From a virus: a DNA stretch of 64,000 nucleotides. A model generated the notes under the pieces. That model ran no database searches, had not been told where the DNA came from, and worked only from the letters and a program-made list of their open reading frames with translations. Position 1 is the stretch's first letter. The number at the start of each line of letters is the position of its first letter. Position numbers and translations under genes: made by a program. Positions 1 through 55,840 of this stretch are shown in pieces. The stretch is from positions 28,050 through 92,049 of IMG/VR virus record IMGVR_UViG_3300028840_004217; one strand, written 5' to 3'.

Positions 1-2010
1 CGGGGCAAATACTACATCAAATACTGGAACGAGTCGGGCGAGGAACGCGTGCCCGTCGTCGCCGGGTACCGCGTCAAGAATGGCGCGAAGTGGCTCCGCA
101 TGAGCCTCAAGAAAACGCTCCAGGTGGTCGATCACGTCTGCATCCTCGACGACGGCAGCACCGACAGCACACCCCGCATCATCAACAGCCTGAAAAAGAA
201 ACACCCCGGCATGATCACCAACGTCCGGTACAACAGGCCGTTCCAGGAACTGCGCGACAGGAACGAGCTGTGGGACATGATGCACGCCGTGGGCAAAGAG
301 CTGCGGCCCGACCTGCCGGGGTGGGGCATCATCCTGGATGCCGACGAAGTGTTCGAGGACAAGGTGACGGCCGACTATCTCCAGATGCTGGCGCGGCCCG
401 TGCATCCCGACGTGCACGGGTATGTGTTCAAGGTGGACACCTTCTGGCGGGGCCGTGAGAAAATCAGGATCGACGGAACCTTCGGCAACCTGAAGGGCGT
501 CCGCATGGTTCGCTTCGGCGCCGAGCAACGCCTGTGGACGCCGCACCCGCAGGGTCTGCACTGCGGCAACACGCCGATGGTGCCGCCCGACTGGCTGGCC
601 CTCACCAACGTGCACCTCAAACACTACGGCTACGAGTCCTACGACCTGGCCAAGAAAAAATTCGAGTTCTATCATGTGACCGACTCGGTGAAGGACCCGG
701 TGAACGTCGGCGGCGACGGCTCCTACCGCCACCTGATCGACGAGACACAGCTGTCGATGGTGGACTGGCATGAGGAGAACACGCTGGGCCTCGGCATGAT
801 GGGCAGGAACGAAGCCGAGTTCCTGCCGCAGTTTTTCGAGCGCAACTTCTGGTGGACCGTGTTCGACCAGATGGTATTCGTGGACTGCGGATCGGAGGAC
901 GACACCAAAAACCTGGCCCTGGCCTACGGATGCCAGGTGTACGACATGCCCAAGAGCATCATCTTTCAGGAGGGTCCGCATGAAGGGAAGCTGAAGCACT
1001 TCGGCCAGGCCCGCAACTTCGTCAAGAGCAAGCTGGGCACGCGGTGGATCCTCATGATGGACGCCGACGAGTGGATAGAACGGGCGGACCACCTGGAGCT
1101 GTTGCGCCTCCTGGAGCATGACATCGTGGCCTACCGCATCAACGTGGCGAACCACCAGCCCAACGGAAGCATCTCCCACTCCGAGTCATTCAGGCTGTAC
1201 CGCAACATAGAGGACGTGTACTGGACGCAGCACGTGCATGAGTCGCTGGAAACGGCGTTGCAGCGCATGGGCCCTGCCGGGCTGACGGGCATCGCCCCGT
1301 TCATCGTTCATCATCTCGGCTACATGCGCGGCCCCGATTATGTGCAGGGCAAGCTGGAGCACTACGCCGACCTGAACAGGCTCGACGTGCGGGCCGACCC
1401 TGCGGACGCGCGGCCCTACTTCAACCTGGCCCTCCACGAACTCAACGAGGGCAACAACGAGGAGGGGGCGGAGCTGCTGTCCAAGGCGTGCGACCTGAAC
1501 CCCAACTTCATGCAGGCGTATAAAGAACTCGGCATGGTCTATTTCCGTCGTTCTCTGCCCCTGTTTGAACACGCCCTCAACGTGGTGTCGCCCGAGCATC
1601 CTGCCGCGCCGGGTCTCAAAGAGATCGTGGACTTCGCACGGAAGGCGGCGATAGAGCCGTTGAAGGTGGGCAACCCGAACAAGCCGTCGCCAGAGGACGC
1701 CGAAGAAACGCAGGAGACTGAAGAAGCGGCGGCGGACGTGGTACCAGAAGGGGAGGACGAGAAAACAGGGATAGACGCGCTGCGAGAGGCCCCTGTCGAT
1801 CCGGTGGCGGAGCAGTTGGGCGAAGCACTCACGGCGGCGGATGAGATCATCGCGGAACACACCGAGGAAGTCGTGAAGGAAATCGGTGAACAAGAGGACC
1901 GCGCCATAACAGGAGAACAGGATGTCATTCATAGCGGCGACGATGATACGGGTGAAGATGGACCCTCTGGACCCCGGAAATCCGACACCGATGATGAAGC
2001 GGCTGGATGA
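1..2010 (+). CDS. Multi-domain glycosyltransferase (two GT2 domains, TPR-like region, acidic tail); 5'-truncated by the window edge
   Basis: The frame is open from base 1 (RGKYYIKYWN...). Two GT-A modules: ILDDGSTD...ILDADE and FVDCGSED...MMDADE, followed by HYGY/HLGY. TPR-like DARPYFNLA...AYKELGMVY. Confidence 0.85.
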   Translation, partial: RGKYYIKYWNESGEERVPVVAGYRVKNGAKWLRMSLKKTLQVVDHVCILDDGSTDSTPRIINSLKKKHPGMITNVRYNRPFQELRDRNELWDMMHAVGKELRPDLPGWGIILDADEVFEDKVTADYLQMLARPVHPDVHGYVFKVDTFWRGREKIRIDGTFGNLKGVRMVRFGAEQRLWTPHPQGLHCGNTPMVPPDWLALTNVHLKHYGYESYDLAKKKFEFYHVTDSVKDPVNVGGDGSYRHLIDETQLSMVDWHEENTLGLGMMGRNEAEFLPQFFERNFWWTVFDQMVFVDCGSEDDTKNLALAYGCQVYDMPKSIIFQEGPHEGKLKHFGQARNFVKSKLGTRWILMMDADEWIERADHLELLRLLEHDIVAYRINVANHQPNGSISHSESFRLYRNIEDVYWTQHVHESLETALQRMGPAGLTGIAPFIVHHLGYMRGPDYVQGKLEHYADLNRLDVRADPADARPYFNLALHELNEGNNEEGAELLSKACDLNPNFMQAYKELGMVYFRRSLPLFEHALNVVSPEHPAAPGLKEIVDFARKAAIEPLKVGNPNKPSPEDAEETQETEEAAADVVPEGEDEKTGIDALREAPVDPVAEQLGEALTAADEIIAEHTEEVVKEIGEQEDRAITGEQDVIHSGDDDTGEDGPSGPRKSDTDDEAAG

Positions 2011-8339: not shown

Positions 8340-9133
8340 TGCCTGCGACCCTGACGGGTATCAAGCCCCGTTTCCTCTATGACACGTCGGTGTTCGACGG
8401 AGCCACGGTGACGACCAACAGCGACACCACGGACCTGCCGGCGACCAACCTTCAAAACGCCATCGTGCGGCGACCCTGGCGCACCGCAGGCACGACGCAG
8501 ATGGCGTGGGCCGTCTACGACCTCGGCACGGCCACCGCCGTCGACATGATCGCCGTGTTCGGCCACAACCTGACCAGCGTGGCCCTCCTGACGATACAGG
8601 GGAACGCATCTGACAGCTGGGGGTCGCCCTCGCTCAACGTGGGCCTCACCATACCGGCCAACGCGGACAGCGTGCTGTTCGAGAAGGCCGTGTCCTTCGC
8701 CACCGGCACGTACCGGTACTGGCGGCTGGCTGTCCAGGGTGCGAATGACGGTACCTATTGGGAGGTGGGCCGCCTGATGGCAGGCCAGTACTTCGAGCCT
8801 ACCGTACCGCAAGACCTGCGGGCACAGCGCAGCATAGAGGACCCGTCGATCACGGACCGCGCCGACGGGATGCAGACCTACAGCCGAGAGGTGGACCAGT
8901 TCTACGTGTACCGCATCAACCAGACCAACCTGTCCCAGGGGGACCGCGACTCGTGGCTGGCCATGTTTCAGAACAGGGGGACACGCCTCCCCATGGCGAT
9001 CGCGTTCGACCCGACCAATGACCATAGATTCAACAGGGACACGATATACGGTAAGATAGCAAGCCCGTTGAAGGAAAGCCTCATACAACTCGAATACGGC
9101 ACCCTACGAATGAATTTCGCGGAGCAATGGTAA
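8339..9133 (+). CDS. Tail-tip/distal tail-like protein
   Basis: Directly after the tape measure gene; discoidin-like YDLG and YRYWRL motifs. Confidence 0.6.
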   Translation: MPATLTGIKPRFLYDTSVFDGATVTTNSDTTDLPATNLQNAIVRRPWRTAGTTQMAWAVYDLGTATAVDMIAVFGHNLTSVALLTIQGNASDSWGSPSLNVGLTIPANADSVLFEKAVSFATGTYRYWRLAVQGANDGTYWEVGRLMAGQYFEPTVPQDLRAQRSIEDPSITDRADGMQTYSREVDQFYVYRINQTNLSQGDRDSWLAMFQNRGTRLPMAIAFDPTNDHRFNRDTIYGKIASPLKESLIQLEYGTLRMNFAEQW

Positions 9134-11331
9134 TGGCCCTCGACACCACAGCTGTCAGTCTCAAGACGCACGTCCTCGTCACGATCAAACTGACGGGCAA
9201 GACCTTGCGCATCGCAGAACGGCACGTCACGCTGGACGACGGCTTCCCGTATGACGGGCGGCTCGACATCAAATCGACCGCCGACCTCCAGCAGTTTCAA
9301 TCGACCTACCAGCCCATCCCGCGTGTGAGTTCGTTCACCCTCAAACTCGACAACCGGGACCAGGGGCTGAGCGACGACCTGGACAACTACATCTGGGGCA
9401 ACAGGGACGTCGAGATACGGGCGGGTGAAGGCACGACGGTGGACGATTACTCCTTGATATTCACCGGCTTCATCGAGTTCCCCACCGGCATCAGCCGGTC
9501 CGAGGACTACGTGTGGGTCCGCGTCGTCAACGCGATGTCGCGCGACAACACCAAGTTTCCCACGGGGCAGTACACAGAGGATGACTTCCCCGACATCGAC
9601 CCGTTCCACGCGGGCCGTGTGGTGCCCATCCTGTACGGCGACTTCACGGACAGCCCGACGAACACCACGCCCTGCACCTGCATAGACACGACCACCAACC
9701 TGTTCGAGTGCTCCGGATCGAGCATCGTGTCCGTGGGCCAGGTGTTTCACAACGGCGTGGCCGTGGCCCACAGCCTGGTGTCCACGGCTCCGCAGGGGCG
9801 GTTCACCATCACGACCTATACGGCGTCGTCCGACATCGTGACGGCACGCATCGCGGGCAAGACCGGATCGGGCGTCGATCTGCCCGGCTCCTTCTCGGAC
9901 GCGATGACGCATCCCGTCGATCAGCTCTATGACATGATGAACGTGGAGGCCGCCATACCCGCGGCCCGCATCGACCTTCAGAGTTTCATAGACACCAAGA
10001 ACGTGGACACCACGCTCAAAGGACGCCGGTTCCTGGACGAGTCGAAAAACATCATGGCGTGGGCCGCAGAGGTCGCCAACGAGTTCAGCTACGACCTGTA
10101 CGTGACGGGCGGGTGCTATACGCTGGCCTTCCGCGAACCCGCCGCACCGTCGGGCACGCTCCTGCGGCAGGAGGACATGGTGGGCGGCTTCACTCAGCAC
10201 GACGACCCCAACCGCCAGTTCGCCAACCGCATCAAAGCCCGGTACAACTACGACCCGGCCCACCTGTCGTTCAACGGGTCCTTCACCGTGGACGGGACGA
10301 CCAGCCAGACAGACTACGATGTGATCACGGGCCGCACCGTCCGGTATTACTGGCAGTATGACACGTCGAAAGCCGAGAACCAGGCGCGGCGTGAACTGCT
10401 CATCAACAAGCGGGTCACGTCGCTGGTGACCGCCGAGTTCAAACACCGGGCCATGCTCCTGGAGTTGACGGACAGCGTGGTGTTCGACAGGGCCCACTTC
10501 TCGGAGGTGCCGATGCTGGTGCGCGGGGTGGACCGCGACTGGAACCGGCTGCGGTCACGCCTGACCCTGTGGAACGTGCCTTCCTTCGCGGACACGGCGC
10601 GGTGGAGCGCGGACAGTGAGTTCTCATACTTCGCCAACACGATACCCAAGCAGCAGGAGTTGGGCTTTTGGGCGGACGAGATCGGAACCGTCGGCCTGAC
10701 GCACACGATCCTCGACACGTTCACAGGTTCACCAGGTACGGCCATCGATGGTCGCCTGATGGACAGGGGCGGCACCTGGAAACAGATTTCGGCGCAGGGT
10801 GCGGCCACGCCCGACTTCCAGATCGTGGGCAACAACATTTGTTCCGGCATCATACCGTTCAGCGCGAACACGACGGCGGGCGCCATCGTTCTGTCGTCCG
10901 TCCTCGTGGGTGAAGTGGTCTGCACATTCCCGGTGCTGAACGACTCGGGCGTGCCCGCCTCCGGACTGCTCATACGGTGGGTCAGTCCGAGCCAACACTG
11001 GCGCGTCCAGATAGAGGACGCCTCCTCCAGTTTCTACATGATCAAGTTCGCCAACGGCCTTCAGGTCTCTGTGGGCGTGACCAACACGATGAACGTGAAC
11101 GCGGGCGACTCGATCCTGGTGACGTGCCTCATGACGGCCACGGGCGTCAGTGCCAAGGCGCACAACCTGAACGACGGCTCCAGCGCGGAGGTGGCGGAGC
11201 AGGCGGACACGACGGACAGCAAGTGGCACGGCATCTATCATCAGGCCCGATCCGGCTCGGGCGACATAGGATTCAATGACTTCAAGGTTATACCGGGCGC
11301 GAGTGGCCTAGGACAATCATACTGGTATTGA
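9133..11331 (+). CDS. Tail-tip/baseplate hub protein with C-terminal beta-sandwich (lectin-like) domain
   Basis: VVPILYGDF motif common in hub proteins; position; beta-rich C-terminus. Confidence 0.65.
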   Translation: MALDTTAVSLKTHVLVTIKLTGKTLRIAERHVTLDDGFPYDGRLDIKSTADLQQFQSTYQPIPRVSSFTLKLDNRDQGLSDDLDNYIWGNRDVEIRAGEGTTVDDYSLIFTGFIEFPTGISRSEDYVWVRVVNAMSRDNTKFPTGQYTEDDFPDIDPFHAGRVVPILYGDFTDSPTNTTPCTCIDTTTNLFECSGSSIVSVGQVFHNGVAVAHSLVSTAPQGRFTITTYTASSDIVTARIAGKTGSGVDLPGSFSDAMTHPVDQLYDMMNVEAAIPAARIDLQSFIDTKNVDTTLKGRRFLDESKNIMAWAAEVANEFSYDLYVTGGCYTLAFREPAAPSGTLLRQEDMVGGFTQHDDPNRQFANRIKARYNYDPAHLSFNGSFTVDGTTSQTDYDVITGRTVRYYWQYDTSKAENQARRELLINKRVTSLVTAEFKHRAMLLELTDSVVFDRAHFSEVPMLVRGVDRDWNRLRSRLTLWNVPSFADTARWSADSEFSYFANTIPKQQELGFWADEIGTVGLTHTILDTFTGSPGTAIDGRLMDRGGTWKQISAQGAATPDFQIVGNNICSGIIPFSANTTAGAIVLSSVLVGEVVCTFPVLNDSGVPASGLLIRWVSPSQHWRVQIEDASSSFYMIKFANGLQVSVGVTNTMNVNAGDSILVTCLMTATGVSAKAHNLNDGSSAEVAEQADTTDSKWHGIYHQARSGSGDIGFNDFKVIPGASGLGQSYWY

Positions 11332-27445: not shown

Positions 27446-28060
27446 TCAAAACGAAGCCTCCGTGAAAAGCGTATACGTGAACGTGGTCCCGTGGCCGTGC
27501 TCGACCTGTCGCTGCGCCAGGCTGATGATCAGGTCGAACACGTCGGGGTCGGGAATCACCTGGCAGGCCGCAGACCACTTGCCGATCCTGACGGACCGCC
27601 GCAGTTCGGATGCCCGGTGTATATTGGCACCGATCACCGCCTTGTCCCACTCATGCATGTCGATATAGGAAACCTCCCCGGCATCAAGTCTCTGCCAGAA
27701 GTCGGGCTGCACACGCCAGAACTCTATCGGCGCGGCCTGCGTCAATGCCCGGTACTTGCCTCTGTGAAAACCGAGCTGGTACGCCGACCGATACTGGCCT
27801 GGCCGCATGATGGCCGTTCCACGCACGTTGAGGGGGTTCTGACGGTAGTACACGCCGGGGTCCGTAGTGCAGGGTGTCTGAATCATATTCCAGTCACCTG
27901 CGGCCTTCCAGACCACAAAAAACAGATCGTTGAACGTATCGGCCGTCAGGTCATTCGACCGGATGCCGCCGATGTTCAGATCGTAGTCGTCGCCCTCGAA
28001 AAAGGCATACATGGCGTTCTGGTATGCGGCCCGTATCTCGTCAAACGTCACCAGGTGCAT
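27446..28060 (-). CDS. Putative peptidoglycan-active enzyme/endolysin (L,D-transpeptidase-like His/Cys motif)
   Basis: LNIGGIR, FND, TTDPG, GANIH and WSAACQV motifs typical of a phage lysin-like family. Confidence 0.55.
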   Translation of the reverse strand: MHLVTFDEIRAAYQNAMYAFFEGDDYDLNIGGIRSNDLTADTFNDLFFVVWKAAGDWNMIQTPCTTDPGVYYRQNPLNVRGTAIMRPGQYRSAYQLGFHRGKYRALTQAAPIEFWRVQPDFWQRLDAGEVSYIDMHEWDKAVIGANIHRASELRRSVRIGKWSAACQVIPDPDVFDLIISLAQRQVEHGHGTTFTYTLFTEASF

Positions 28061-43817: not shown

Positions 43818-44123
43818 CGCCTCCGCAGACGCCACGTATGTTTTCGGGCATAGCACAACCAACAGCATCTGACCGGGAGGACATCACGATGACCATCAAT
43901 CACGATTACACTGCTTTCTGGTTCTCGGACGCGGACGTGCGCAGCCTGCTCGCTACGGGCAAGGCCGACAGCTCTGCCTGTCCGGAGGGCGTGTGGAAGC
44001 CGTTTCACGTGGAGGTGGGTGAAGCCGCCAAATTCGACAAACGGAAGTTCGCCCTCACCATCACCCAGGAGGACGTCGAGTACCTGCACGTCCACCGCCG
44101 CATCGACGCGAAGGAGATCGCGC

Positions 44124-44810
44124 ATGGCAACCGCAAAAAAGAAGCAACCCTCATCGTCGACGACATCTGCGCAGAAAGAGGCACCCCCCCAGGCTGACAC
44201 GGAGGTGCTGAACATCACGCGGGGCGACGACGGCAGCATCACCGTCGCTATGCCGGACATCAACGACAACCCGCTCGCCCGCTTCCGGTCCCGCATCGTG
44301 GCCACCGGATTCAAGCCCGCCAACCAGTTCACGGCCAACCCCCTGAACTGGCGTGAGCACCCGCCCGAACAGCGACAGGCCATGCAGGAGATACTGGCCA
44401 TGTTCGGCTGGATCGCTGGCGTGATCGAGAACCAGCGCACGGGCAACCTGATCGACGGCCACGAACGGATATGGGACGCACTGGACCAGGACGAGCAGAC
44501 CCTGGTGCCCTTCACGCTCGTCGACGTGAGCGAGGAGGAGGAAAAGCAACTGCTGGTGTTCTTCGACAAGGTGGGCGAGATGATCTACGCCAACCGGGAG
44601 AACCTGCGGCTGCTGATGGGGTCTGTCGGTGAAGAAGTGACCAACGAGAACGACGGCCTGCGCCTCCTGGCCAATATGATACAGCACCAACACCTGGAGA
44701 ACGAAAAAGCCTATGAGCCGCCCGACGAATTCCCGGAACACGACGAAGAAATCGACACGGAGTACTGCTGCCCCAAGTGCGGGTACGAATGGTCCGGCAA
44801 AGCCAGTTGA
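44124..44810 (+). CDS. ParB/Srx-like N-terminal domain protein with C-terminal zinc ribbon
   Basis: NPLNWREH...FGW...NQRTGNLIDGHER; CPKCGYEW. Confidence 0.8.
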   Translation: MATAKKKQPSSSTTSAQKEAPPQADTEVLNITRGDDGSITVAMPDINDNPLARFRSRIVATGFKPANQFTANPLNWREHPPEQRQAMQEILAMFGWIAGVIENQRTGNLIDGHERIWDALDQDEQTLVPFTLVDVSEEEEKQLLVFFDKVGEMIYANRENLRLLMGSVGEEVTNENDGLRLLANMIQHQHLENEKAYEPPDEFPEHDEEIDTEYCCPKCGYEWSGKAS

Positions 44811-46122
44811 CAAGCCCCCCTTCGTCGTGCCCTCTATGTCAGAGATAGAAGCGACGCCGCCCAACGGGTACACCGTCGTCAGCACTTTCAGCGGTGCGGG
44901 CGGCTCCTGTCTCGGCATGCGGATGGCCGGGTTTCGTGTGGCGTGGGCCTCTGAATTCGTGGAGGCGGCCCAAGAGGTGTACCGGATGAACCACCCTATG
45001 ACGCCCCTCGACCACCGCGACATACGGGAGGTCAAGGGCCAGGACATCCTCGACACGCTCGGCATCAAAGTGGGTGAACTCGATCTCCTGGAGGGGTCGC
45101 CCCCCTGCGCCTCCTTCTCGCTGGCCGGCAAGCGTGAGAAGGGGTGGGGCAAGGTGAACGCCTATTCGGACACCAAACAGCGCGTGGACGACCTGTTCCT
45201 GGAGTTCGCCCGCCTGATCAAAGAGATGCAGCCCAAGGTGTTCCTGGCCGAGAACGTGCGGGGCCTCATATCAGGTGTGTCGAAGGGCATGTTCAAGGAG
45301 TTCCTCAAGACGTTCAAAGCACTCGGCTATGACACCAAAGCGTGTCTGCTCAACGCCAAGTGGCTCGGCGTTCCGCAGAACAGGGAGCGCGTGTTCTTCA
45401 TGGGCGTCCGCAACGACCTGAAGGTGCGTCCCGTTTTTCCCAAGCCCCTGCCCTATTACTACACGGTGCGGGAGGCCATACCCTGGATCGTGCGTCACAG
45501 CAAGAGCAAGTCGTCCGGACAGTGGAACACCGACGTGCCGTGCATAGAGCAGGCGCAGATGGTGCCGAGTGATCAGGAGGTCAGTTCGACGCTCCTGCAG
45601 GGCGGCAGCATGAAGGCGGCCCACTTCGCGGAGACCACGAAGGACGCGCCCGACGTGCCGGGCACCCGCCTGGTGATGGACAGCTCGGGCCAGTGGAAAA
45701 CGATAGACTTCACGGACGACGCCTCCCCCTGCGTCCGCGCCAGCGGCGTGGGCCACCTGTTCGTGGTGGAGGATGAATCGGAGATCAAAGAGGGTACGGC
45801 CCTGGCCGGTGAGTGGGACAAACTCGCGCCGGGACAGAAGGGCAAGTTCCTCAACTTCATCAAGGCGCGGCCCGACCTGCCGTGTCCCACGGTGACCGCG
45901 ATGGGCGGACAGCCCGCCGCCAGCGTCGCCCACCCGTACCAGCGTCGCAAATTCTCGATGGCCGAGCTGCGGCGCATCTGTGCTTTCCCTGACGACTTCA
46001 AGCTCACCGGATCCTACTCACAGCAGTGGGAACGCCTCGGACGCGCCGTCCCGCCGGTCATGATGTACCACATAGCCTCTGCCGTGCGCGATGGCGTCCT
46101 GCGGAGGATAGACCGTGGATGA
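44713..46122 (+). CDS. DNA cytosine-C5 methyltransferase fold; predicted carboxymethyltransferase (start uncertain, possibly 44827 or 44836)
   Basis: FSGAGG, GSPPCASFS, ENV, PQNRERVF; motif X reads LGRAVPP instead of GNAV. Confidence 0.9.
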   Translation: MSRPTNSRNTTKKSTRSTAAPSAGTNGPAKPVDKPPFVVPSMSEIEATPPNGYTVVSTFSGAGGSCLGMRMAGFRVAWASEFVEAAQEVYRMNHPMTPLDHRDIREVKGQDILDTLGIKVGELDLLEGSPPCASFSLAGKREKGWGKVNAYSDTKQRVDDLFLEFARLIKEMQPKVFLAENVRGLISGVSKGMFKEFLKTFKALGYDTKACLLNAKWLGVPQNRERVFFMGVRNDLKVRPVFPKPLPYYYTVREAIPWIVRHSKSKSSGQWNTDVPCIEQAQMVPSDQEVSSTLLQGGSMKAAHFAETTKDAPDVPGTRLVMDSSGQWKTIDFTDDASPCVRASGVGHLFVVEDESEIKEGTALAGEWDKLAPGQKGKFLNFIKARPDLPCPTVTAMGGQPAASVAHPYQRRKFSMAELRRICAFPDDFKLTGSYSQQWERLGRAVPPVMMYHIASAVRDGVLRRIDRG

Positions 46123-46954
46123 CGTCGCCGCCCTGTGGCGTGAAAAACTCCTCACCACGATGCAGCCCTACATCGACCTGCCCATCATGCTGTCGGGCGG
46201 CGTGGATTCGGGCACGCTCCTGTGTGCCGCCCTCGAACTCGGCGGCAGGCCACCCTGCTATTCTTTCAAGCTGACCGGACCCGACATACCGGACGTACAG
46301 GTGGCCCGTAAGATGGCCAACGACTTCGACCTTCCTTTTACCCTTATCGTCATACCCCGAAACGAAGAACAGCTCTTAAACGACATCAGAGAGGTCATCT
46401 CGCTGCTCGGCGTGTCCAAGAAGGCCAGCGTCCAGTGCAGCCAGCCCGTCATGTACATGTGCCGCCAGATGAAGGCCGACGGTTTCGACCGGGCCATCGT
46501 CGGGACGGGCGCCGTGTGTCTGGACGACAAGAAGGTGGCGATGCTGTGGGCCAAGGAGGGTGAGGAATCGGCCCGCGCCTACCGCGCGGCCAAGCTGAAT
46601 GACAAGAACACGAACTGCGGCACGGGCAACATGCACCGCATGGGCCGCATCTGCGGCGTCCCGCTCGTGGAACCGTACTCGGAGGAGCCCCTGGTGAGTC
46701 ACGCCCTGGCCCTCGACTATGCGGAGCTGAACAGGCCCAAGCAGAAGGGCATCGCCCTCCGCGCCTTTCCCGACTTCTGGAAACGGGGGTACTACCGTCG
46801 CAACTCGCCCCTCCAGGTGAACAGCGGCGTGCGTGAGTGGCACGACACGCTCCTGAAGTCGCCCGTCAACAACGGACACCAGGCGGTCGTCGCCATCTAC
46901 AACGAGATCCGAAAAGAACTGGAGGCCAAAGGTGAACTGGCCGAACCTCTATGA
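46115..46954 (+). CDS. Asparagine-synthase-like ATP-dependent amide ligase (no glutaminase domain)
   Basis: PP-loop LSGGVDS; K..LR.AF C-terminal motif; 279 aa. Confidence 0.75.
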   Translation: MDDVAALWREKLLTTMQPYIDLPIMLSGGVDSGTLLCAALELGGRPPCYSFKLTGPDIPDVQVARKMANDFDLPFTLIVIPRNEEQLLNDIREVISLLGVSKKASVQCSQPVMYMCRQMKADGFDRAIVGTGAVCLDDKKVAMLWAKEGEESARAYRAAKLNDKNTNCGTGNMHRMGRICGVPLVEPYSEEPLVSHALALDYAELNRPKQKGIALRAFPDFWKRGYYRRNSPLQVNSGVREWHDTLLKSPVNNGHQAVVAIYNEIRKELEAKGELAEPL

Positions 46955-48062
46955 TATGGCCTATCTCGAAGCCGCCGAGCGGGTGTTGCGATCGCAACGG
47001 TACACGCAGGGGGCGGAACAAGCGGCTCTGGAAGCTGAATTCGTCCGGTGGCTCGGCGTGGACGATATGCACGCGGTGGCTGTCACGAACGGGACGGCGG
47101 CGTTGCAGGCCGCGCTGCTGGCCCACGGCATCCTGCCCGGTGATGAGGTGATCGTGCCGGCGCTCACGTTCACCGCCACCGGCCTGGCCGTCAAGCGCGT
47201 CGGTGCCGTACCCGTGTTCGTGGACATCGACCCGCAGACCCTCACCATCGACGTGGACCAACTCAACTATGCGGTGACGCCGCGCACAAAGGCGGTCATA
47301 GCGGTCGACCTGGACGGCCACCCGGCGCACTACGACGCACTGGAACCGTTCTGTGAAGGGCGCGGCCTGTTCCTCCTGGAGGATGCCTGTCCCGCCCACG
47401 GCTCGGTCCTCGACGGCCGCATCTGCGGGACCTTCGGTGACGCCGCCGCCTTCTCTATGAACCAGACCAAGATACACGGCGTGGGTGAGGGCGGCATGGT
47501 CGTGACGCGCCACGCACACCTGGCAGTGCGGGTACGGGCCCTCCGCGACTTCGGAGAAGTGGAGCGGCGCAAGCTGCGGGTGTCCACCCTGATGGGCGAC
47601 AACTGGAAGCTGGATGAGATGGGCGCGGCCATGGCCCGCGTGAGCCTCGCCTTCCTCGAGGAGCGCATCCGGACGTGCGTGGAGAACTGCGGCGTGCTGG
47701 ACGAAGCGATGAACGGGTTGCACTGGATACGACGGCCCCACATCAGGCCGGGTGCGTATGTGGTGCGCCACAAGTACCGCGCCAGAATCAACGGCAAGCG
47801 GGAAGCGATAGAGAATGAGATGACCGTGGCCGGGATACCGGTGACCGTGACGGACGTGCTGCCCCTGCCGCACCATCCGGTTTTCGAGCATGAACAGGCT
47901 GACGTGCCCCAGGCCGACCTCGCCGTGGAGAACACGGTGGTGATCGGATCACGTGAGTCACCACTGTGGGCTGTGTCCCGCGATGCCGTCGCCGTGTGGG
48001 GCGACAAGCTGCGGGGCGTTGAGACGAGGTTGTGGTCAACGATGAAAGGAGCGAACCGTTGA
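46932..48062 (+). CDS. DegT/DnrJ/EryC1/StrS PLP-dependent aminotransferase
   Basis: AVTNGTAAL, GDEVIVPALTF, EDAC, FSMNQTK...GEGG. Confidence 0.92.
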   Translation: MNWPNLYDMAYLEAAERVLRSQRYTQGAEQAALEAEFVRWLGVDDMHAVAVTNGTAALQAALLAHGILPGDEVIVPALTFTATGLAVKRVGAVPVFVDIDPQTLTIDVDQLNYAVTPRTKAVIAVDLDGHPAHYDALEPFCEGRGLFLLEDACPAHGSVLDGRICGTFGDAAAFSMNQTKIHGVGEGGMVVTRHAHLAVRVRALRDFGEVERRKLRVSTLMGDNWKLDEMGAAMARVSLAFLEERIRTCVENCGVLDEAMNGLHWIRRPHIRPGAYVVRHKYRARINGKREAIENEMTVAGIPVTVTDVLPLPHHPVFEHEQADVPQADLAVENTVVIGSRESPLWAVSRDAVAVWGDKLRGVETRLWSTMKGANR

Positions 48063-48210
48063 ACCTGCGTGTACCACATACACGGGGCAGGGTGAACCGC
48101 ACATTTCGCACCCGGTCCTACGCAGGACGCTGGAAATGGGCAAATCGTCAACCTGGGTGCCAGGCATCACGGATGGCCCCGCAGGAGTAGGTAACGAAAG
48201 GAAACATCTC

Positions 48211-49371
48211 ATGAGCAATCTCACGGAAGTCAAACACGATCATCCTCGGGTGGCCATCGTCGGCGTGGGCAACTGTGCCAGCGCCCTGGTGCAGGGCACG
48301 CAATACTACGCGGACAACGACACGAAGGAAGGGCTGGTGCGCCACATGATCGGCCCCTATGCGCCGGAGCACGTCCAGTTCAGTGCGGCCTTCGACGTGG
48401 ACCCGCGCAAAGTGGGTCACGACCTCGGACGCGCCATCAACCTGGGTGAGAACAACACCTGGCAGATGGTGCGCGACCCGTGGCACCGCAACGTACAGGT
48501 GGTCGAAAGCCCGGTGATGGACGGCCTGGGCAGAACCTACCGATCGGTGCTGCCCGCCCTGAACGGACGCGGGGATCGACCCACCTCCGAGGAGGACGTC
48601 GAATTCTATGCCGACATCCTGAGTGAATCGGACACCACCGTCCTGGTCAACTACCTCCCGGTGGGTTCCGAAGTCGCCACCCGCTTCTGGGCCGACGTGT
48701 GCCTGACGGCGGGCGTGGGTATGGTGAACGCGATCCCGGTGTTCATAGCGTCCGACCCGCAGTATCAAGCCGCCTTCGAGGAGCGCAACCTGCCCCTCAT
48801 GGGCGACGACATCAAGAGTCAGTTCGGGGCGACGATACTGCATCGCCTTCTGGCTCGCCTCGTGGGTGCCAGGGGCTACACCCTGGACAAGACCTACCAG
48901 CTCAATTTCGGCGGCAACATGGACTTCCGCAACATGCTCGACCATGAACGCCTCGCCTCGAAAAAGAAAAGCAAGACGGGCGCGGTGCAGGCCGAGTATG
49001 ACATAGAGGACGACCTGGTGCACATCTCTCCGTCCGACTATGTGCCGTGGCTCAAAGACGAGAAGTGGTGCTACATCAACATGCACCTGTCGGGATTCGG
49101 CGGCGCGCCGTCCGAGCTGGAGTTGAAGCTGAAGGTGTGGGACAGTCCCAACAGCGCGGGGTGCGTGATCGACTGCGTGCGCATCTGCCACCTGGCACTG
49201 CGGTGCGGCCTGGGCGGCACGCTCAACTACCCGTCCGCCGTGTACATGAAGTCGCCGCCCGAACAGATCGCGGACAGTCAGGCCGACATCAACCTGGATG
49301 CCTGGATAGAGGCCATGATGAACATCCTCGATCCGGTCACAAGCAACCATGAGTATGAAATCGTCGAATGA
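48211..49371 (+). CDS. ino1: myo-Inositol-1-phosphate synthase
   Basis: VAIVGVGNCASALVQG, YLPVGSE, GDDIKSQFGAT, QLNFGGNMDF, SKKKSKT, VWDSPNSAG. Confidence 0.95.
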   Translation: MSNLTEVKHDHPRVAIVGVGNCASALVQGTQYYADNDTKEGLVRHMIGPYAPEHVQFSAAFDVDPRKVGHDLGRAINLGENNTWQMVRDPWHRNVQVVESPVMDGLGRTYRSVLPALNGRGDRPTSEEDVEFYADILSESDTTVLVNYLPVGSEVATRFWADVCLTAGVGMVNAIPVFIASDPQYQAAFEERNLPLMGDDIKSQFGATILHRLLARLVGARGYTLDKTYQLNFGGNMDFRNMLDHERLASKKKSKTGAVQAEYDIEDDLVHISPSDYVPWLKDEKWCYINMHLSGFGGAPSELELKLKVWDSPNSAGCVIDCVRICHLALRCGLGGTLNYPSAVYMKSPPEQIADSQADINLDAWIEAMMNILDPVTSNHEYEIVE

Positions 49372-49867
49372 CATCGCAATGAACGGCGTGATTGCCAAAG
49401 AGATACGGGAGCCCGTCAACGCAGGCCGCCCGTTCTTCGTGGGGCAGGCACCGGGGCGTGACGGAGGCCGCCCACTCCTGGGGGCGGCATACCGCCGCTT
49501 CGGCGCACCCCACGGTATGACCGTCGAAGAATTCGCAGCCGCCACGGACCGGGCCAACCTGATACCCTACTGGCCCGGCAAGTCGGGCAAAGGCGATGCC
49601 TTCCCCAAAGGCGAGGCCAGGACGGAAGCCTGTCGCCTACCTTTGCACGGACGTCACCGCGTCCTCCTGCTCGGACAGAACGTGGCGTCCTGTTTCAACA
49701 TAGCGGGCGGTGACATGCTGGAGTGGTTCGTACACCCGCGCGGATTCATCTGCGCCGTCCTGCCGCACCCGTCCGGCATCAACAGGCAGTGGAACGACGC
49801 GGCCACCGTCGACCAGGTGAACGACTTCATGGCCCGCGTGTGGGACAATGCGAAGGAGAGATCATGA
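49349..49867 (+). CDS. Uracil-DNA glycosylase-superfamily protein
   Basis: FVGQAPG motif A, VLLLG, LPHPSG motif B. Confidence 0.75.
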   Translation: MSMKSSNDIAMNGVIAKEIREPVNAGRPFFVGQAPGRDGGRPLLGAAYRRFGAPHGMTVEEFAAATDRANLIPYWPGKSGKGDAFPKGEARTEACRLPLHGRHRVLLLGQNVASCFNIAGGDMLEWFVHPRGFICAVLPHPSGINRQWNDAATVDQVNDFMARVWDNAKERS

Positions 49868-50586
49868 GTAAAGAAACCGGCACGGACCATGTGATGCCCG
49901 AGGACAAGTGGGCGTTCGACGACGAAGTGACCGACGTGTTCGATGACATGCTCGCACGCTCTATACCGCAGTATGACGTGATGCGCGAACTCACGTTTCA
50001 ACTGGCCGCACACTTCCAGCAGGACAAGACGGACATCCTCGACATGGGATGCTCACGCGGGGAAGCCGTCGCCGCCCTGATCGACAAGTTCGGCGCCAGC
50101 AACCGGTTCACGGGCATCGACGTGTCGGAGCCTATGCTGAAAGCGGCCACCGACAGATTCCAGGGCTACATCAACTGCGGCGTGGTCGACATACGGCACT
50201 GTGACCTGCGTACCGACTTCCCGAACGTGTCCGCCTCCGTCGTCCTCTGCGTTCTCACGCTCCAGTTCACGCCGATAGAATACAGGCTCCGCATCATACA
50301 GGACATCTATGACCATCTCGTTCCAGGCGGGGCCCTATTACTGGTCGAGAAGGTACTTGGGGCCTCAGCCCGTATAGATACCCTGATGGTAGATGAATAC
50401 CTCCTGATGAAGTCTACGCAGGGTTATTCAAGAGATGAGATAGACCGGAAGCGGCTTTCACTGGAAGGCGTACTCGTACCGGTGACGGCGCGTATGAACG
50501 AGGAATTCCTTCAGTCGGCAGGCTTCAGAGAGATCGACTGTTACTGGCGGTGGCTCAACTTCATGGGCTGGCTGGCCGTCAGGTAG
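49864..50586 (+). CDS. cmoA: Carboxy-SAM synthase (CmoA-like)
   Basis: WAFDDEVTDVFDDMLARSIPQY, DMGCSRG, LTLQF, VEK, KRLSLEGV (Arg retained), WLNF. Confidence 0.85.
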   Translation: MSKETGTDHVMPEDKWAFDDEVTDVFDDMLARSIPQYDVMRELTFQLAAHFQQDKTDILDMGCSRGEAVAALIDKFGASNRFTGIDVSEPMLKAATDRFQGYINCGVVDIRHCDLRTDFPNVSASVVLCVLTLQFTPIEYRLRIIQDIYDHLVPGGALLLVEKVLGASARIDTLMVDEYLLMKSTQGYSRDEIDRKRLSLEGVLVPVTARMNEEFLQSAGFREIDCYWRWLNFMGWLAVR

Positions 50587-50610: not shown

Positions 50611-51393
50611 ATGGCCAACAGCGGCGGCATCACGACAGATGAAAAAGGGCGGCGGTATTTGAACGGAGCCCCGCTGTGTACGCACGTATTTCGTAAGGGG
50701 CGACGCAAGGGCGAACCCTGTCGTCGCATAGCGGTCAAGAACAGGCCGTACTGCAAGGACCACGGCGGACGCAACCCGGTGGGTATCGACACGCCCATGT
50801 ACATTCACGGCCGTCGCTCGAAATACTCGCCCGCCACCATAGCGGCCACCATCGACGAGATCATGGCCGACCCGCCACAGCGGATTCTCGACATACGGGA
50901 GGACATCGCCACGACGGAAGGCCTCCTGCGTGACGCCCTTGAAAAGCTGGAGACCGGAGAAGGGCCCAATGCCTGGAAGCAGGTGCAGACGCACTACAGG
51001 GCGATGCAGACCGCGCTACGGACGGGTGACATAGAGGGGGCGCAGCGACACCTGAATGAGATGGGCCCGCCCCTGGCCGAAGGCGCGTCGGATTCGGAGG
51101 CGCGACAGCAAGTCGCTGCACTCACACGCCAGAGCGCGGATCTGCGGGGCCGACTGTTCAACATGATGAAAGAACACGACGAGATCATCACAACCAAGCA
51201 GCTCCTCGCCTTCCTCTCCACGCAGATGGTGCGCCTCGGAGAGCGTGTGGCCGCGTTCGACTTCGGCGACGAGTTCATAGACACGGTGGGACGCGACATT
51301 GAAGAACTCCTCTCAACAACATTTAAAGACCCTGTTCCTCGACCAAGCCAGAACGGGCCTGGCGAAATTCCAGCGGCCAACAGCGGGGCCTGA
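50611..51393 (+). CDS. Terminase small subunit-like protein
   Basis: C...C...CKDHGG and HGRRSK motifs; directly upstream of the large subunit. Confidence 0.7.
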   Translation: MANSGGITTDEKGRRYLNGAPLCTHVFRKGRRKGEPCRRIAVKNRPYCKDHGGRNPVGIDTPMYIHGRRSKYSPATIAATIDEIMADPPQRILDIREDIATTEGLLRDALEKLETGEGPNAWKQVQTHYRAMQTALRTGDIEGAQRHLNEMGPPLAEGASDSEARQQVAALTRQSADLRGRLFNMMKEHDEIITTKQLLAFLSTQMVRLGERVAAFDFGDEFIDTVGRDIEELLSTTFKDPVPRPSQNGPGEIPAANSGA

Positions 51394-52933
51394 TGTATAC
51401 CGGCGGTGGGAAGCGTCTGCCAAAGACCTGGGGCTGGACGAAGCGCCCTGGTGTGACTTCCTACTCAAATACTTCTATCCTTCGTTCATAGACGCGACGG
51501 GCCACTGCTTTGAACCCGCCGTGTTTCACCATCTGTTTTGGGCGTGGGTGTGGGACGTGCAGCGCGGAGAGCGTCCGCAGCCGCTCGTCAACTGCTGGTT
51601 CCGCGGCTCCTCGAAATCGACCAACGCCGAGATCATACCCTGTGTGTTCGGCGCGTATGACAAACGCTCCTACGGCATCTACGTGTGCAATACGCAGGCA
51701 CAGGCCGATGACCACGTTCAGAACATCGCAGACAAACTCTCCTCCCGCCCCTTTGCCGACGACTACCCCGCCCTGGCGGATCGCGCCGTCGGAGCCTTCG
51801 GCCACTCGAAGGGCTGGCGCAGAAACAGGCTCCGCACCAGATCGGGCATGACGATCGATGCCCTCGGCCTCGACACGGGCCGCATCCGCGGACTCAAGAT
51901 CGAGGATCAGCGTCCGGATTTCCTCGTCCTCGATGACATCGACGACATCACGGACAGTACGGGCACGATAGAGAAGAACACCGCCGTACTGACCAAGAGC
52001 ATCCTGCCCGCAGGCGCGGACGACCTGGCTGTGTGCGTCATTCAGAACAAGGTGCGCGACGACGGCATCATGGGCAGCCTGGTCAACGGCAACGCGGATT
52101 ATCTGCGGGACCGGTTTCTGAACGGCCCTATCCCGGCGATACAGAACTTCGAGTTCGAGCACCGGGCGAACCGCAACGTGATCGTCGCCGGCATCAGCAC
52201 CTGGAGCGGCAAGTCGCTGGCCCGGTGCCAGAAGGAAATCGACGACGAAGGCATCAGCGCGTTCCTCGAGGAGAACCAGCACGCCACCGCCACGATCAAG
52301 GGCGGCATCTTCGACCTGGTGCACTACCGCCACTGCAACCCTGGTGACGTACCCACGCCAGAGTTCACGTCCGTGTGGGTCGATCCCGCCGTGTCCGATA
52401 CGGACAACAGCGACGCCCACGGTGTCCAGGCGTCCTCGATGGACGCCAACGGGCTGGTGTACAAACGTCGCTCCTGGGAGCAACGGGCCACGCCGGAGCA
52501 GGCACTGATGCGGGCCATCATGTGGGCCGACGAGTTGAACGCCGACTGCGTGGGTGTCGAAACCGATCAGGGGGGCGACCTGTGGAAAGGAACCTACCGG
52601 CGCATGTGCGCCGAGCTGGGCAAACCGCGCAGGCCGTTCCGATCTGCGAAGGCGGGTTCGTCGCGGCAGAGCAAGACGGGCCGCGTGGGGCAGCAGGTGA
52701 CGGACTATGAAACCGGCCTGGTGGTTCACGTCCTCGGGACGCACCACGTCCTTGAGAACGCCCTGGACCGCTTTCCCAAGCAGAAGCCGTTCGACCTGGC
52801 CGACGCGGATTACTGGTGCTGGAAGGACCTGACGCAGTTCAGGGAGTCCGAGTCGAGTTCCTACTACGAGGAAACGACGCTCGAAGACGAGCTGGACGAA
52901 ATCGAGCGTCTGGAAGCGGAAGGGACGTTATAG
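51299..52933 (+). CDS. Terminase large subunit
   Basis: Walker A FRGSSKST, RG...RPDFLVLDD Walker B, VDPA, ETDQGG, DLADA nuclease motifs. Confidence 0.9.
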   Translation: MKNSSQQHLKTLFLDQARTGLAKFQRPTAGPDVYRRWEASAKDLGLDEAPWCDFLLKYFYPSFIDATGHCFEPAVFHHLFWAWVWDVQRGERPQPLVNCWFRGSSKSTNAEIIPCVFGAYDKRSYGIYVCNTQAQADDHVQNIADKLSSRPFADDYPALADRAVGAFGHSKGWRRNRLRTRSGMTIDALGLDTGRIRGLKIEDQRPDFLVLDDIDDITDSTGTIEKNTAVLTKSILPAGADDLAVCVIQNKVRDDGIMGSLVNGNADYLRDRFLNGPIPAIQNFEFEHRANRNVIVAGISTWSGKSLARCQKEIDDEGISAFLEENQHATATIKGGIFDLVHYRHCNPGDVPTPEFTSVWVDPAVSDTDNSDAHGVQASSMDANGLVYKRRSWEQRATPEQALMRAIMWADELNADCVGVETDQGGDLWKGTYRRMCAELGKPRRPFRSAKAGSSRQSKTGRVGQQVTDYETGLVVHVLGTHHVLENALDRFPKQKPFDLADADYWCWKDLTQFRESESSSYYEETTLEDELDEIERLEAEGTL

Positions 52934-53515: not shown

Positions 53516-55840
53516 ATGTTCGGTGAAACTCTCCTCCGCGAACACTCGCGGCTGGACGTGGACCTGCTGCGACAGTCCACCGAGGCGCAAGGCATATCGA
53601 CGGGCATGACCGAGGAGGTCGCCCGCCACCCTATCCAGACGGGACCGGGCGGGGCACTCAAACCTGAAACGCTCCGCAGGCTGGCCGAGAGTTCGTCAGC
53701 GGTGCGGCCCGCCGTGGAGACCATCAAGCGCACCATCGCCTTCATGCGGTGGGACATCGTGTTGAAGGACGAGGAGGCGGAGGAAACGGACGACATCAAG
53801 GCGCGGCGCGATGAACTGCGCGCCCTGTTCAGCCAGCCCAACGTCAACCCGTTCCCGTTCTCGAACCTGCTCTCGATGGTCCTCGACGACCTGCTCATCC
53901 TGGACAAGTACACGATAGAGGTCGTCAAGAACCGGGCGGGCGACAAGGTGGTGGAGCTGTGGGAACGCGACGCGGCCACCATCACGCCCGACATCGACGA
54001 GCAGGGTGTCTGGACCGGCTTCACGCAGAAGATACCGAACAAGCTGGGGCAGACCAAAAAAGTCATTCCGTTCACGCCGGAGCAGATCATATTCTGCTCT
54101 ATGTTCCCCCGCAGCAACAGACCGACCGGCACGCCCATAATAGAGACCATCATCAACGAGGTCACGTCCCTCCTGTTCATGATACAGCACATCGGCGTCA
54201 CGTTCACGGAGGACGAGATACCGCCCGGCATCCTGTGGCTCGGCGACGGCATAGCGCGTGAGGTGTTCGCCCGCGTCACCGCCTCGCTCAAGCAGGGACG
54301 CCGCCGCAAATTCGAGGACCTCAAGTTCCGCGTGTACGGCGGCGGACAGCAGGCACCGAAGTGGGTCGAACTGAAACGGGCCAACCGGGACGAGCAGATG
54401 CGGGAGCTGCGCCACGACATCGAAGACATCGTGTTCATCAACTTCGGTGTGATGCCCGCCCGCATGGGCCGCACCGACCGCGTGAACCGAAGCAACATAG
54501 AACAGCAGGCCCGGTGGGAGGAATCGACCCTCATCCGACCGATCATGAAGCTGCTGGAGTTCGCCGTCACCCTGGCCGTCATAGAACGCGGCTACGGATA
54601 CAACGACCTCGCCTGGCGGCTCATACCCGACCGGGAGGAGACCGAGGAGAGCCGCGCCGAAGTCGCCAACAAGATGCTCGGTCCCGACATCCCGGTGTTC
54701 ACCATCAACGGCGTTCGGGCCAAGCTGTACGACGAGGAGCCGTGGGACATCATCGCCGCCAATGAGCCGTTCATCATGACACCCACCGGCCCTATGTTCC
54801 TCAAGGACATGATGCCCCTGGCCGATCAGCCGGATGACGAAGGCGACGATGACGGCGACACGGACGGCGACGACGACGACACGCAGGGACCGGACGGGGC
54901 GGGACCGGAGGAAGGACCCGACGCGGAACCGGCGGACGGCGATGCGGCGGCGAGTGTGAACGGCCGTCGTCTGCCGCCAGCGGCGGTTTCAATGTCGGTA
55001 GACGCATTTCTGGAACGGGCGCAGAGTACTCAAACGGTTGACGTATCGAACTGGCACTCGATGCAGTCTATGGCCGTTTTCGAGCAGATACGGCCTATGG
55101 TCGAGAAACAGGAGATCGAAGGCCGCCGATTCCTCACGACACTGACGGGCACGATCTTCACCGCCTATTCGCTGACCATGCTTGCCGCCTGGAACGAGGC
55201 GCGGAAGAACATAGCGGACAGCCTGGCGGCGCAGACGCAGCTGGTGGGTGACAACCTGATCATTGCCGACCCGCAGACGCGGCAGGAGGAGATGGCCCTG
55301 GTGCTGGCGGGCATGCTGACCCTGTTTCAGCAGGCCGCAGGCGAGGCGTTCTCTATGGCGGGCGTGGTGGGACGCAACGCGGCCCAATCTATAGAAGCGG
55401 GCGCGGCCCTGACGCCGCGTGACCTGGCCGACCTGGTGCGCGAACACGAACTGGACAACAGCACGTTCCTCCGCAACAGGCTCGTCCGCAAAGTGGGCAC
55501 TGCCCTGTGGGCCGTATCTCGGAATACGTTCGACACGTCCGAGGCGGCGCGGGATGCGGCGCGCAAGGCGTTCGACAGCCAGGTGTACCGCCTGGACCGG
55601 TATGCCCGGCGTGTACATTCTATAGGGACGGACATATATGTGCGGGCCCTCGACCTGACGCGCAAGTACCGGTGGCGGTGGTGGGATGTGGGGGACGACG
55701 TGGAGTGTTCGGCGTGCGTGGACGCCCAGGCCCGGTCGCCCTACGCCAACCGAGGAGAGATGCCGTTCCTGCCCGGCCAGAGTCCCGAATGCAACGGCAA
55801 CTGCCGGTGTGAAATCGAAGCGGAGGTCCTGCCGACCTGA
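53516..55840 (+). CDS. Portal protein fused to a MuF/minor-head-like C-terminal domain
   Basis: Portal motifs (PN, GTPIIE, FGVMP..MG, TINGVR), acidic linker, then W...GDDVECSAC...CNGNCRC. Confidence 0.85.
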   Translation: MFGETLLREHSRLDVDLLRQSTEAQGISTGMTEEVARHPIQTGPGGALKPETLRRLAESSSAVRPAVETIKRTIAFMRWDIVLKDEEAEETDDIKARRDELRALFSQPNVNPFPFSNLLSMVLDDLLILDKYTIEVVKNRAGDKVVELWERDAATITPDIDEQGVWTGFTQKIPNKLGQTKKVIPFTPEQIIFCSMFPRSNRPTGTPIIETIINEVTSLLFMIQHIGVTFTEDEIPPGILWLGDGIAREVFARVTASLKQGRRRKFEDLKFRVYGGGQQAPKWVELKRANRDEQMRELRHDIEDIVFINFGVMPARMGRTDRVNRSNIEQQARWEESTLIRPIMKLLEFAVTLAVIERGYGYNDLAWRLIPDREETEESRAEVANKMLGPDIPVFTINGVRAKLYDEEPWDIIAANEPFIMTPTGPMFLKDMMPLADQPDDEGDDDGDTDGDDDDTQGPDGAGPEEGPDAEPADGDAAASVNGRRLPPAAVSMSVDAFLERAQSTQTVDVSNWHSMQSMAVFEQIRPMVEKQEIEGRRFLTTLTGTIFTAYSLTMLAAWNEARKNIADSLAAQTQLVGDNLIIADPQTRQEEMALVLAGMLTLFQQAAGEAFSMAGVVGRNAAQSIEAGAALTPRDLADLVREHELDNSTFLRNRLVRKVGTALWAVSRNTFDTSEAARDAARKAFDSQVYRLDRYARRVHSIGTDIYVRALDLTRKYRWRWWDVGDDVECSACVDAQARSPYANRGEMPFLPGQSPECNGNCRCEIEAEVLPT

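Follow-up and report, generated by a model that had tools for sequence, protein, structure and literature searches.

A recurrent aminotransferase and inositol-phosphate synthase pair as a candidate amine-supply module in a phage 5-carboxymethylcytosine cluster

What use might a phage have for an aminotransferase and an inositol-phosphate synthase homologue lodged among the genes of a DNA modification system? The question is raised by IMG/VR virus record IMGVR_UViG_3300028840_004217, a complete record of 92,049 bp with direct terminal repeats, whose final 64 kb (positions 28,050 to 92,049) are the stretch analysed here, hereafter the window, to which coordinates refer unless another locus or the genome is named. 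Seven plus-strand genes at 44124-50586, overlapping or at most 73 nt apart, encode in this order a ParB-like protein, a DNA cytosine C5-carboxymethyltransferase of the CmoX type, an ATP-dependent amide ligase of the CmoY type, a pyridoxal phosphate (PLP)-dependent aminotransferase of the DegT/DnrJ/EryC1/StrS family (DegT), a homologue of myo-inositol-1-phosphate (inositol-3-phosphate) synthase (MIPS), a small protein of the UDG superfamily, and a CmoA-type synthase of carboxy-S-adenosylmethionine (carboxy-SAM or Cx-SAM). An earlier note on this DNA had described such a co-oriented run of seven genes ahead of the terminase genes, and each of them was found again on the plus strand in its place. 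The cluster is best explained as a CmoA/CmoX/CmoY-type pathway that hypermodifies cytosines after replication and brings its own amine-supply module. As judged by comparison of sequences, the DegT-MIPS module is an undescribed and recurrent one, tied phylogenetically to one clade of ligases.

The core of such a pathway was published in December 2025 for Synechococcus phage S-B43, whose CmoA produces carboxy-SAM, whose CmoX, a methyltransferase homologue, forms 5-carboxymethylcytosine (5cxmC) in DNA, and whose CmoY, an AsnB-like ligase, amidates 5cxmC using glycine (Yang et al., Nat Commun 2025, PMC12783734). Candidate CmoX proteins were recognised in that work by an SPPC motif together with Arg350, the residue of SpCmoX that corresponds to Asn304 of M.HhaI and contacts the Cx-SAM carboxylate. 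ParBc proteins, present in 1660 CmoX contigs, were reported as frequent neighbours, and several further ligase clusters with unknown amines were noted, while inositol, aminotransferases and glycosylases all go unmentioned (Yang et al., 2025).

The window transferase (44713-46122, + strand, 469 aa; PF00145, E 7e-60) has SpCmoX (8YF3) as its best solved relative (E 9e-62, 43-46% identity). Its GSPPCASFS aligns with GSPPCSAFS of SpCmoX, and its GRAVPP with the GRMVPP that contains R350, at a site where the HaeIII and HhaI methyltransferases have GNAVP. Because both CmoX hallmarks, the SPPC motif and an Arg in place of Asn, are present, the core is counted as the known system. The ligase gene (46115-46954, + strand, 279 aa) overlaps that of CmoX and encodes an Asn-synthetase C-domain alone (PF00733, E 7.6e-11; PHROG 26038, E 6.8e-30), with the PP-loop LSGGVDSGT and no glutaminase domain, so that an AsnB-type domain stands by itself beside CmoX and CmoA, as expected of a CmoY; its identity to SpCmoY (271 aa) is 27% over 254 residues, and a sequence search of the PDB with it found nothing. 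The putative CmoA (49864-50586, + strand, 240 aa) matches TIGR00740 far better than any other family (E 8.8e-49; 166 bits against a cut-off of 193, covering 13-238 of 239), and also matches PHROG 4752 (E 1.6e-70). Its closest solved structures are YecO (1IM8, 7e-31) and Escherichia coli CmoA (4GEK, 6e-29), and it shares 25% identity with SpCmoA, phage CmoAs being divergent. Its start is taken as the ATG at 49864, which overlaps the stop codon of the UDG-like gene (ATGA) and is preceded by GGAGAG, and not as the start of the open reading frame at 49723. By homology, then, the core of the cluster is the published 5cxmC system, and the statement in the earlier note that phage trios of methyltransferase, CmoA and amide ligase make and amidate 5-carboxymethylcytosine agrees with that system and with both residue tests of the transferase.

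The ligase differs from its published counterpart in where it belongs. Its family comprises 53 database clusters that are exclusively viral; an alignment of it, run against 185,579 prokaryote species with a single genome per species, retrieved just weak partial PP-loop matches and no true homologue, and therefore gave no prophage or host clue. In 50,697 phage records identity reaches about 31% at best, and no cultured phage carries a ligase of this clade. Since the window ligase falls in a different clade from SpCmoY, glycine specificity is not to be assumed, and the amine used by the window system is probably not glycine.

A first indication of what that amine might be comes from gene order. 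Viral and metagenome contigs, scanned with alignments, yielded 56 loci, which were screened by tblastn with the window proteins. In each of the 13 distinct loci that have DegT (the window, L005/L016, L013, L014, L015, L019, L020, L021, L030, L031, L034, L036 and L050), its gene starts no more than about 100 nt past the end of the ligase gene, always within the cmoX...cmoA block; MIPS comes directly after DegT in eight of these, and three contigs stop too early to tell. The ligases of the 12 further contigs are 39-63% identical to that of the window, and it is because the ligase-DegT(-MIPS) block recurs in such distinct and divergent contigs that the arrangement is not put down to chance. Placement of CmoX varies, upstream of the ligase in some loci and past MIPS in others, so that ligase-DegT-MIPS is the invariant unit; the position of CmoA varies too. 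The CmoX genes of the DegT-linked loci bear GSPPC and GR[AS]VP. No other gene is conserved inside the block, and neither a dehydrogenase nor a phosphatase was seen there. A neighbourhood survey for ino1 and DegT beside GRAV-type methyltransferases had been proposed as a check in the earlier note. One of the loci with DegT and MIPS, L021, also has a second methyltransferase, of the FkbM type (PF05050; 6430-7977 of that locus), between CmoX and the ligase.

A different gene occupies the same slot elsewhere. Between a more distant CmoY and CmoA, locus L045 (= L012, IMGVR_UViG_3300026516_000166) encodes AdoMet decarboxylase and spermidine synthase as a single fusion (8867-10012), which predicts a polyamine amide of 5cxmC; a polyamine-synthesis gene where DegT-MIPS would otherwise stand is what one would expect were the embedded gene the source of the amine.

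How exceptional is MIPS in a DNA modification cluster? Although a scan of viral contigs with a single MIPS protein found nothing, a scan with a MIPS alignment found 80 more viral loci, and these were classified together with seven cmo loci, 87 in all. At 47 of them, in IMG/VR, the neighbours include one or more of an amino acid:DNA transferase (ADDT, PF18724), a 5-hydroxymethyldeoxyuridine (5-hmdU) DNA kinase (PF18723) and a ThyA-like gene, which makes this a thymidine hypermodification context (loci L067-L121, e.g. L094 7986-10575 and L067 7992-10041). At 13 there are FolE, QueE or DpdA genes, usually in the order MIPS, small unknown protein (130 aa, no Pfam match), QueC-like PP-loop gene. 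These 7-deazaguanine loci (L001, Stenotrophomonas phage Moby, MN095772.1, 6321-11735; L123-L126, L131-L136 and L143) include cultured Stenotrophomonas Menderavirus phages such as Moby, their MIPS deviate from the family consensus (T233S, H236S, and D224S in Moby and RP13), and they may make an inositol-linked 7-deazaguanine derivative. At five (L108, L110, L111, L112 and L119; e.g. L111 6811-12743) DegT immediately precedes MIPS, cmo genes are absent, two PAPS-reductase/DUF3440 (IbrA-like PP-loop) proteins come next, and ParB_N and GP88-family proteins are near, a layout that may represent another DNA-modification system with the same amine module. The occurrence of MIPS inside three or four chemically different base-modification clusters suggests a widespread and unrecognised inositol chemistry on DNA. 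No paper linking inositol or inosamine with phage DNA was found.

Other proteins recur around these loci. An unknown protein of about 194 aa lies near MIPS at 33 loci, and FkbM-type methyltransferases at 11. GP88-family genes (PF17338) occur beside the DegT-MIPS/PAPS-reductase genes at L110 4084-5850 and L111 4967-5746, and directly past a CmoY ligase without DegT at L022 8807-9571.

Phylogenetic trees link the pair to the ligase and its members to each other. All 11 DegT-linked ligases included in the ligase tree fall in one clade (Shimodaira-Hasegawa-like approximate likelihood ratio test support 99), and none of the eight ligases outside it, SpCmoY among them, has a DegT. In the MIPS tree eight Cmo-linked and five PAPS-reductase-linked sequences group together (support 91), separate from the thymidine-context clade and from the 7-deazaguanine-context clade. 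The DegT tree joins 11 Cmo-linked, three PAPS-reductase-linked and three database sequences in one clade (support 99), set apart from 116 other database relatives. As both proteins thus form phage-specific clades, the pair has been co-inherited; DegT and MIPS move as a pair, which has been joined to different ATP-dependent PP-loop enzymes. Judged by comparison among genomes, the two act together with the CmoY ligase: the proposal in the earlier note that they belong to the ligase pathway draws support from the strict gene order, the ligase clade, the co-inherited clades and the amine-synthesis gene in the slot of L045.

What the two enzymes could make is indicated in part by their relatives. 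DegT (46932-48062, + strand, 376 aa), whose gene overlaps that of the ligase by 23 nt, is a clear family member (PF01041, E 4.9e-79, 266.6 bits against a cut-off of 19.8) and retains the Lys that forms the Schiff base with PLP, FSMNQTK aligning with FSFYPTK of 7b0d and FSFYPGK of DesV. Its best solved match is 7b0d (E 1.1e-47), named glutamine-scyllo-inositol transaminase, an entry for which no paper was traced; others are DesV (3e-46), WbpE (8e-43) and BtrR (1.5e-36), and its solved relatives include the inosose aminotransferases 2C7T and 5W70, structures of the BtrR/BtrS type, with NtdA (4K2B/4K2I), which acts on a keto-sugar phosphate, as a distant one (E 2e-26). The MIPS homologue (48136-49371, + strand, 411 aa) matches PF01658 (E 4e-32), Ino1 of Mycobacterium tuberculosis (1GR0, E 3.6e-100) and Ari2 (6K96, 1.3e-48), and scores 373 bits with TIGR03450, under the equivalog cut-off of 638. 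It would accordingly be classed as a member of the superfamily and not as a certified equivalog, and some of its relatives, Ari2 for one, produce different cyclitols. Long forms among its best 150 relatives carry GNAT, NTP-transferase, intein or unknown extensions; one MIPS homologue, P0083 (837 aa), is split by an intein that contains a LAGLIDADG endonuclease domain.

Taken together, these elements would allow the following pathway. CmoA would turn SAM and host prephenate into carboxy-SAM, from which CmoX would move the carboxymethyl group onto C5 of cytosines in phage DNA to give 5cxmC. Meanwhile the MIPS homologue would cyclise glucose-6-phosphate to an inositol-phosphate skeleton, and DegT would transaminate a keto form of that skeleton to inosamine or inosamine phosphate. 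The ketone might arise in either of two ways, as scyllo- or myo-inosose through host inositol monophosphatase (IMPase) and inositol dehydrogenase, or as inosose-1-phosphate drained by DegT from the synthase's own NAD redox cycle, by analogy with NtdC and NtdA. CmoY would then adenylate the 5cxmC carboxylate and couple the inosamine-type amine, leaving in the major groove a bulky carbocyclic, polyhydroxylated amide, a restriction shield functionally like the glucosyl-hydroxymethylcytosine (glucosyl-hmC) of T4. The CmoA and CmoX steps and the chemistry assigned to the ligase draw on homology, residue tests and the published biochemistry of relatives, whereas the aminocyclitol nature of the amine and the route to its ketone are what we infer. 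An amide of 5cxmC with an inositol-derived amine is the best-supported reading of the cluster, and we give it about an even chance of being right.

Several observations weigh against an inositol-derived amine. Across 78 full-length reference MIPS, 34 columns reach 90% conservation or more, and the window MIPS keeps every one, among them GDDIKSQ, NxGGNxDF, SKKxSK and the Lys residues 276, 280, 310 and 372 of the window protein; the DegT-linked MIPS show no clade-specific substitutions of a kind that might point to ketone release. With the enzyme canonical at every conserved column, nothing suggests release of an inosose, and the expected product is an inositol phosphate that DegT could not use unless it were oxidised. 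Fusions of MIPS with DegT or with the ligase were absent from its best 150 relatives. The complete phage genome has no member of the Gfo/Idh/MocA, short-chain dehydrogenase/reductase, NAD-epimerase/dehydratase, IMPase or nucleotidyltransferase families and no match to HAD_2 (PF13419), in line with the remark in the earlier note that no inositol dehydrogenase was visible, and Gfo/Idh/MocA is also absent from two related partial records; the canonical MIPS and the absence of a dehydrogenase or phosphatase of the searched families leave the step to the ketone unexplained. Within the DegT-linked ligase clade, moreover, L022, L023 and L025 form a sub-clade without DegT. The main rival is that the pathway is the same and the amine another: from a keto sugar of the host DegT would make, for example, an amino sugar, its phosphate or an NDP-4-amino-6-deoxyhexose, and MIPS would serve separately, for a second substituent or for rewiring host metabolism. 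Beyond the canonical MIPS and the missing dehydrogenase, this account can call on L030 and L031, where the gene directly after DegT is CmoA or CmoX and MIPS is absent at that site, and on the nearest database DegTs, which bear names of NDP-sugar aminotransferases (perosamine-synthetase, dTDP-amino-sugar transaminase); the best NCBIfam matches are DesI, PseC and ArnB, and the distance of DegT to inosose and to NDP-sugar aminotransferases is about equal. Those database names, however, were assigned automatically, and the complete genome has no nucleotide-sugar enzymes of PF01370 or PF00483, so that neither an NDP-sugar dehydratase nor a nucleotidyltransferase is there for an NDP-sugar route. MIPS directly follows DegT in the eight Cmo loci and in the five PAPS-reductase loci as well, the two have been co-inherited in phage clades, and the cluster has no other transferase able to attach inositol phosphate. 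An amine unrelated to inositol therefore seems to us a minor possibility, worth keeping in mind but not favoured.

The remaining alternatives detach one or more genes from the making of the amine. DegT and MIPS might make a cyclitol or amino sugar for glycans of the virion or the host envelope, with CmoY using glycine, ammonia or a polyamine. In favour of this, and against the preferred reading, stands a 935-aa open frame with three glycosyltransferase family 2 (GT2) domains at 27.3-29.3 kb of the genome, whose C-terminal part is window 49-2010, among structural genes; such a protein would be able to use an amino sugar, which leaves a glycan role formally open. A weak GT1 match lies at genome 23790-24041. 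SpCmoY, furthermore, requires no dedicated supply gene (Yang et al., 2025). Yet DegT adjoins the ligase in every locus that has it, inside the cmoX...cmoA block and here about 45 kb from the glycosyltransferase genes, two related records about 50% complete (G001 and G002) carry the block with no GT2 match, and phage MIPS sit overwhelmingly in DNA-base modification clusters, all of which makes a glycan destination unlikely. Gene order alone does not give the order of reactions, and DegT could instead act after ligation, with the PLP enzyme tailoring an amino acid, or a keto- or aldehyde-bearing compound, that CmoY had tethered beforehand; in work of Lee and colleagues from 2018, PLP enzymes reportedly tailor 5-hmdU-derived bases on DNA in this manner. 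This we consider very unlikely, as an amide ligase requires its amine nucleophile beforehand, DegT-family enzymes work on small keto sugars or cyclitols, and the DegT-MIPS pair is also found without CmoY. Least probable of all, to the point of being hardly tenable, is that the transferase is an ordinary 5-methylcytosine methylase among unrelated auxiliary metabolic genes. Its matches to PF00145 and TIGR00675 are generic and would suit such an enzyme, but it has Arg for the motif-X Asn, as in SpCmoX, whose R350N variant is inactive and whose wild type takes Cx-SAM only (Yang et al., 2025), and its run of overlapping genes also includes a CmoA and a CmoY-type ligase, which are found together in dozens of loci.

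With an inositol-derived amide of 5cxmC as the preferred reading, comparison with known systems brings out what is new. The window shares with S-B43 an SPPC/Arg C5 transferase, a PP-loop ligase that lacks a glutaminase domain and, by prediction from the genes, post-replicative DNA modification, along with a putative carboxy-SAM synthase and a ParB-like neighbour; it differs in having a ligase of another clade, followed by DegT and, in the group at large, usually by MIPS, and in the UDG-fold gene, likewise unmentioned for S-B43. Actinomycetes make aminocyclitols for antibiotics by way of StrI and StsC in streptomycin, Hyg18, Hyg25, Hyg17 and Hyg8 in hygromycin A, and BtrC and BtrS in 2-deoxystreptamine. 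Production of an inosamine by a cyclitol-forming enzyme together with an aminotransferase of the DegT family would be common to both, whereas these antibiotic pathways employ a phosphatase and an NAD-dependent inositol dehydrogenase, or else a ketone-releasing cyclase like dehydroquinate synthase, none of which the phage encodes, and attach the aminocyclitol to a sugar where the phage would attach it to DNA. For the shorter of the two ketone routes there is a precedent in the kanosamine pathway of Bacillus subtilis (NtdC, NtdA and NtdB), in which an NAD enzyme makes a keto-sugar phosphate from glucose-6-phosphate, DegT-family NtdA transaminates it, and transamination pulls the unfavourable oxidation forward. 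Glucose-6-phosphate is thus converted to an amine by two enzymes, though the oxidoreductase is a Gfo/Idh/MocA enzyme and not a MIPS, and the kanosamine product is no carbocycle. Thymidine hypermodification, with its 5-hmdU DNA kinase and ADDT/aGPT-Pplase enzymes, and the glucosyl-hmC of T4 have in common with the proposed pathway a handle at pyrimidine C5 that then receives a bulky, polar, nuclease-blocking group, but there the handle is a hydroxymethyl or phosphate, elaborated by substitution or glycosyl transfer, whereas the phage cluster would use a carboxylate and an ATP-dependent amide; DegT is absent from those clusters. It is to bulky sugar-like groups in the major groove that T4 DNA owes its resistance to some CRISPR effectors and most restriction enzymes.

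A more far-reaching reading, one that we hold only tentatively and think rather improbable as a whole, would unite these clusters by taking MIPS as a shared phage donor module for a family of cyclitol-bearing DNA bases. At least three handles would serve, namely 5cxmC for CmoY, the phosphate of 5-hmdU for ADDT, and 7-carboxy-7-deazaguanine for a QueC-like ligase. Where the handle is a carboxylate, the DegT-MIPS pair would be self-sufficient, converting inosose-1-phosphate to inosamine phosphate with no dehydrogenase or phosphatase; this would amount to a minimal new aminocyclitol route, and the base would be 5-(inosaminyl-phosphate)-carbamoylmethylcytosine.

Were the preferred reading, an inositol-derived amine on 5cxmC, to prove true, the base would bear the first carbocyclic (cyclitol) substituent known on a natural DNA base, and the cluster might embody a two-enzyme route from glucose-6-phosphate to an aminocyclitol. 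A new bulky group of this kind would be relevant to the arms race between phage and host, to the sequencing and base-calling of environmental phage DNA, and to enzymatic DNA labelling. The five genes concerned, cmoA, cmoX, cmoY, degT and ino1, form a set expressible in E. coli.

The two other members of the run, the ParB-like and the UDG-fold proteins, are general accessories of Cmo systems and may help in DNA binding or in the repair of deaminated or half-modified bases. The ParB-like gene (44124-44810, + strand), whose ATG at 44124 lies within the open reading frame 44019-44810, matches PHROG 620 ('ParB-like partition protein', E 1.9e-12) and PHROG 498, a methyltransferase with a ParB-like part (1.2e-11), with no match in Pfam; a ParB_N homologue precedes CmoY in L034. 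The UDG-like gene (49349-49867, + strand, 172 aa) matches PHROG 12275 (E 1.8e-16) and reaches 22.1 bits with PF03167, just below the gathering score, and a sequence search of the PDB with its product found nothing. An AlphaFold2 model of the protein (mean predicted local distance difference test score, pLDDT, 73) confirms a UDG fold at the level of prediction: the 49 PDB matches listed by Foldseek are nearly all of the UDG superfamily (family 4 UDG, TDG, UdgX and MUG), with probabilities of 0.96-1.0 and TM-scores of about 0.5. Glycosylase activity is putative. The protein has GQAPG as motif A (GxxPG-type) and PHPSG as motif B (HPS). Homologues adjoin cmo genes at five other loci (L014, L015, L019, L038 and L041), where both motifs are conserved, and since L038 has such a homologue with no DegT between ligase and CmoX, the protein is taken as an accessory of Cmo systems generally. 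TDG handles 5-carboxylcytosine. The phage protein might plausibly repair products of deamination that arise in the transferase reaction, or else recognise bases that are half-modified.

As for the phage itself, the cluster DNA had zero megablast matches in the 50,697 phage records, and the large terminase (51299-52933, + strand; PHROG 38 'terminase large subunit', E 5.6e-36) had zero tblastn matches at E<1e-10 in those GenBank phage records, so that neither a cultured relative nor a host can be named; no tRNA genes are present. Between the modification cluster and the large terminase gene lies a 260-aa gene without family match (50611-51393, + strand), possibly the small terminase, and farther downstream come a portal gene (53516-55840) and a protease-like gene.

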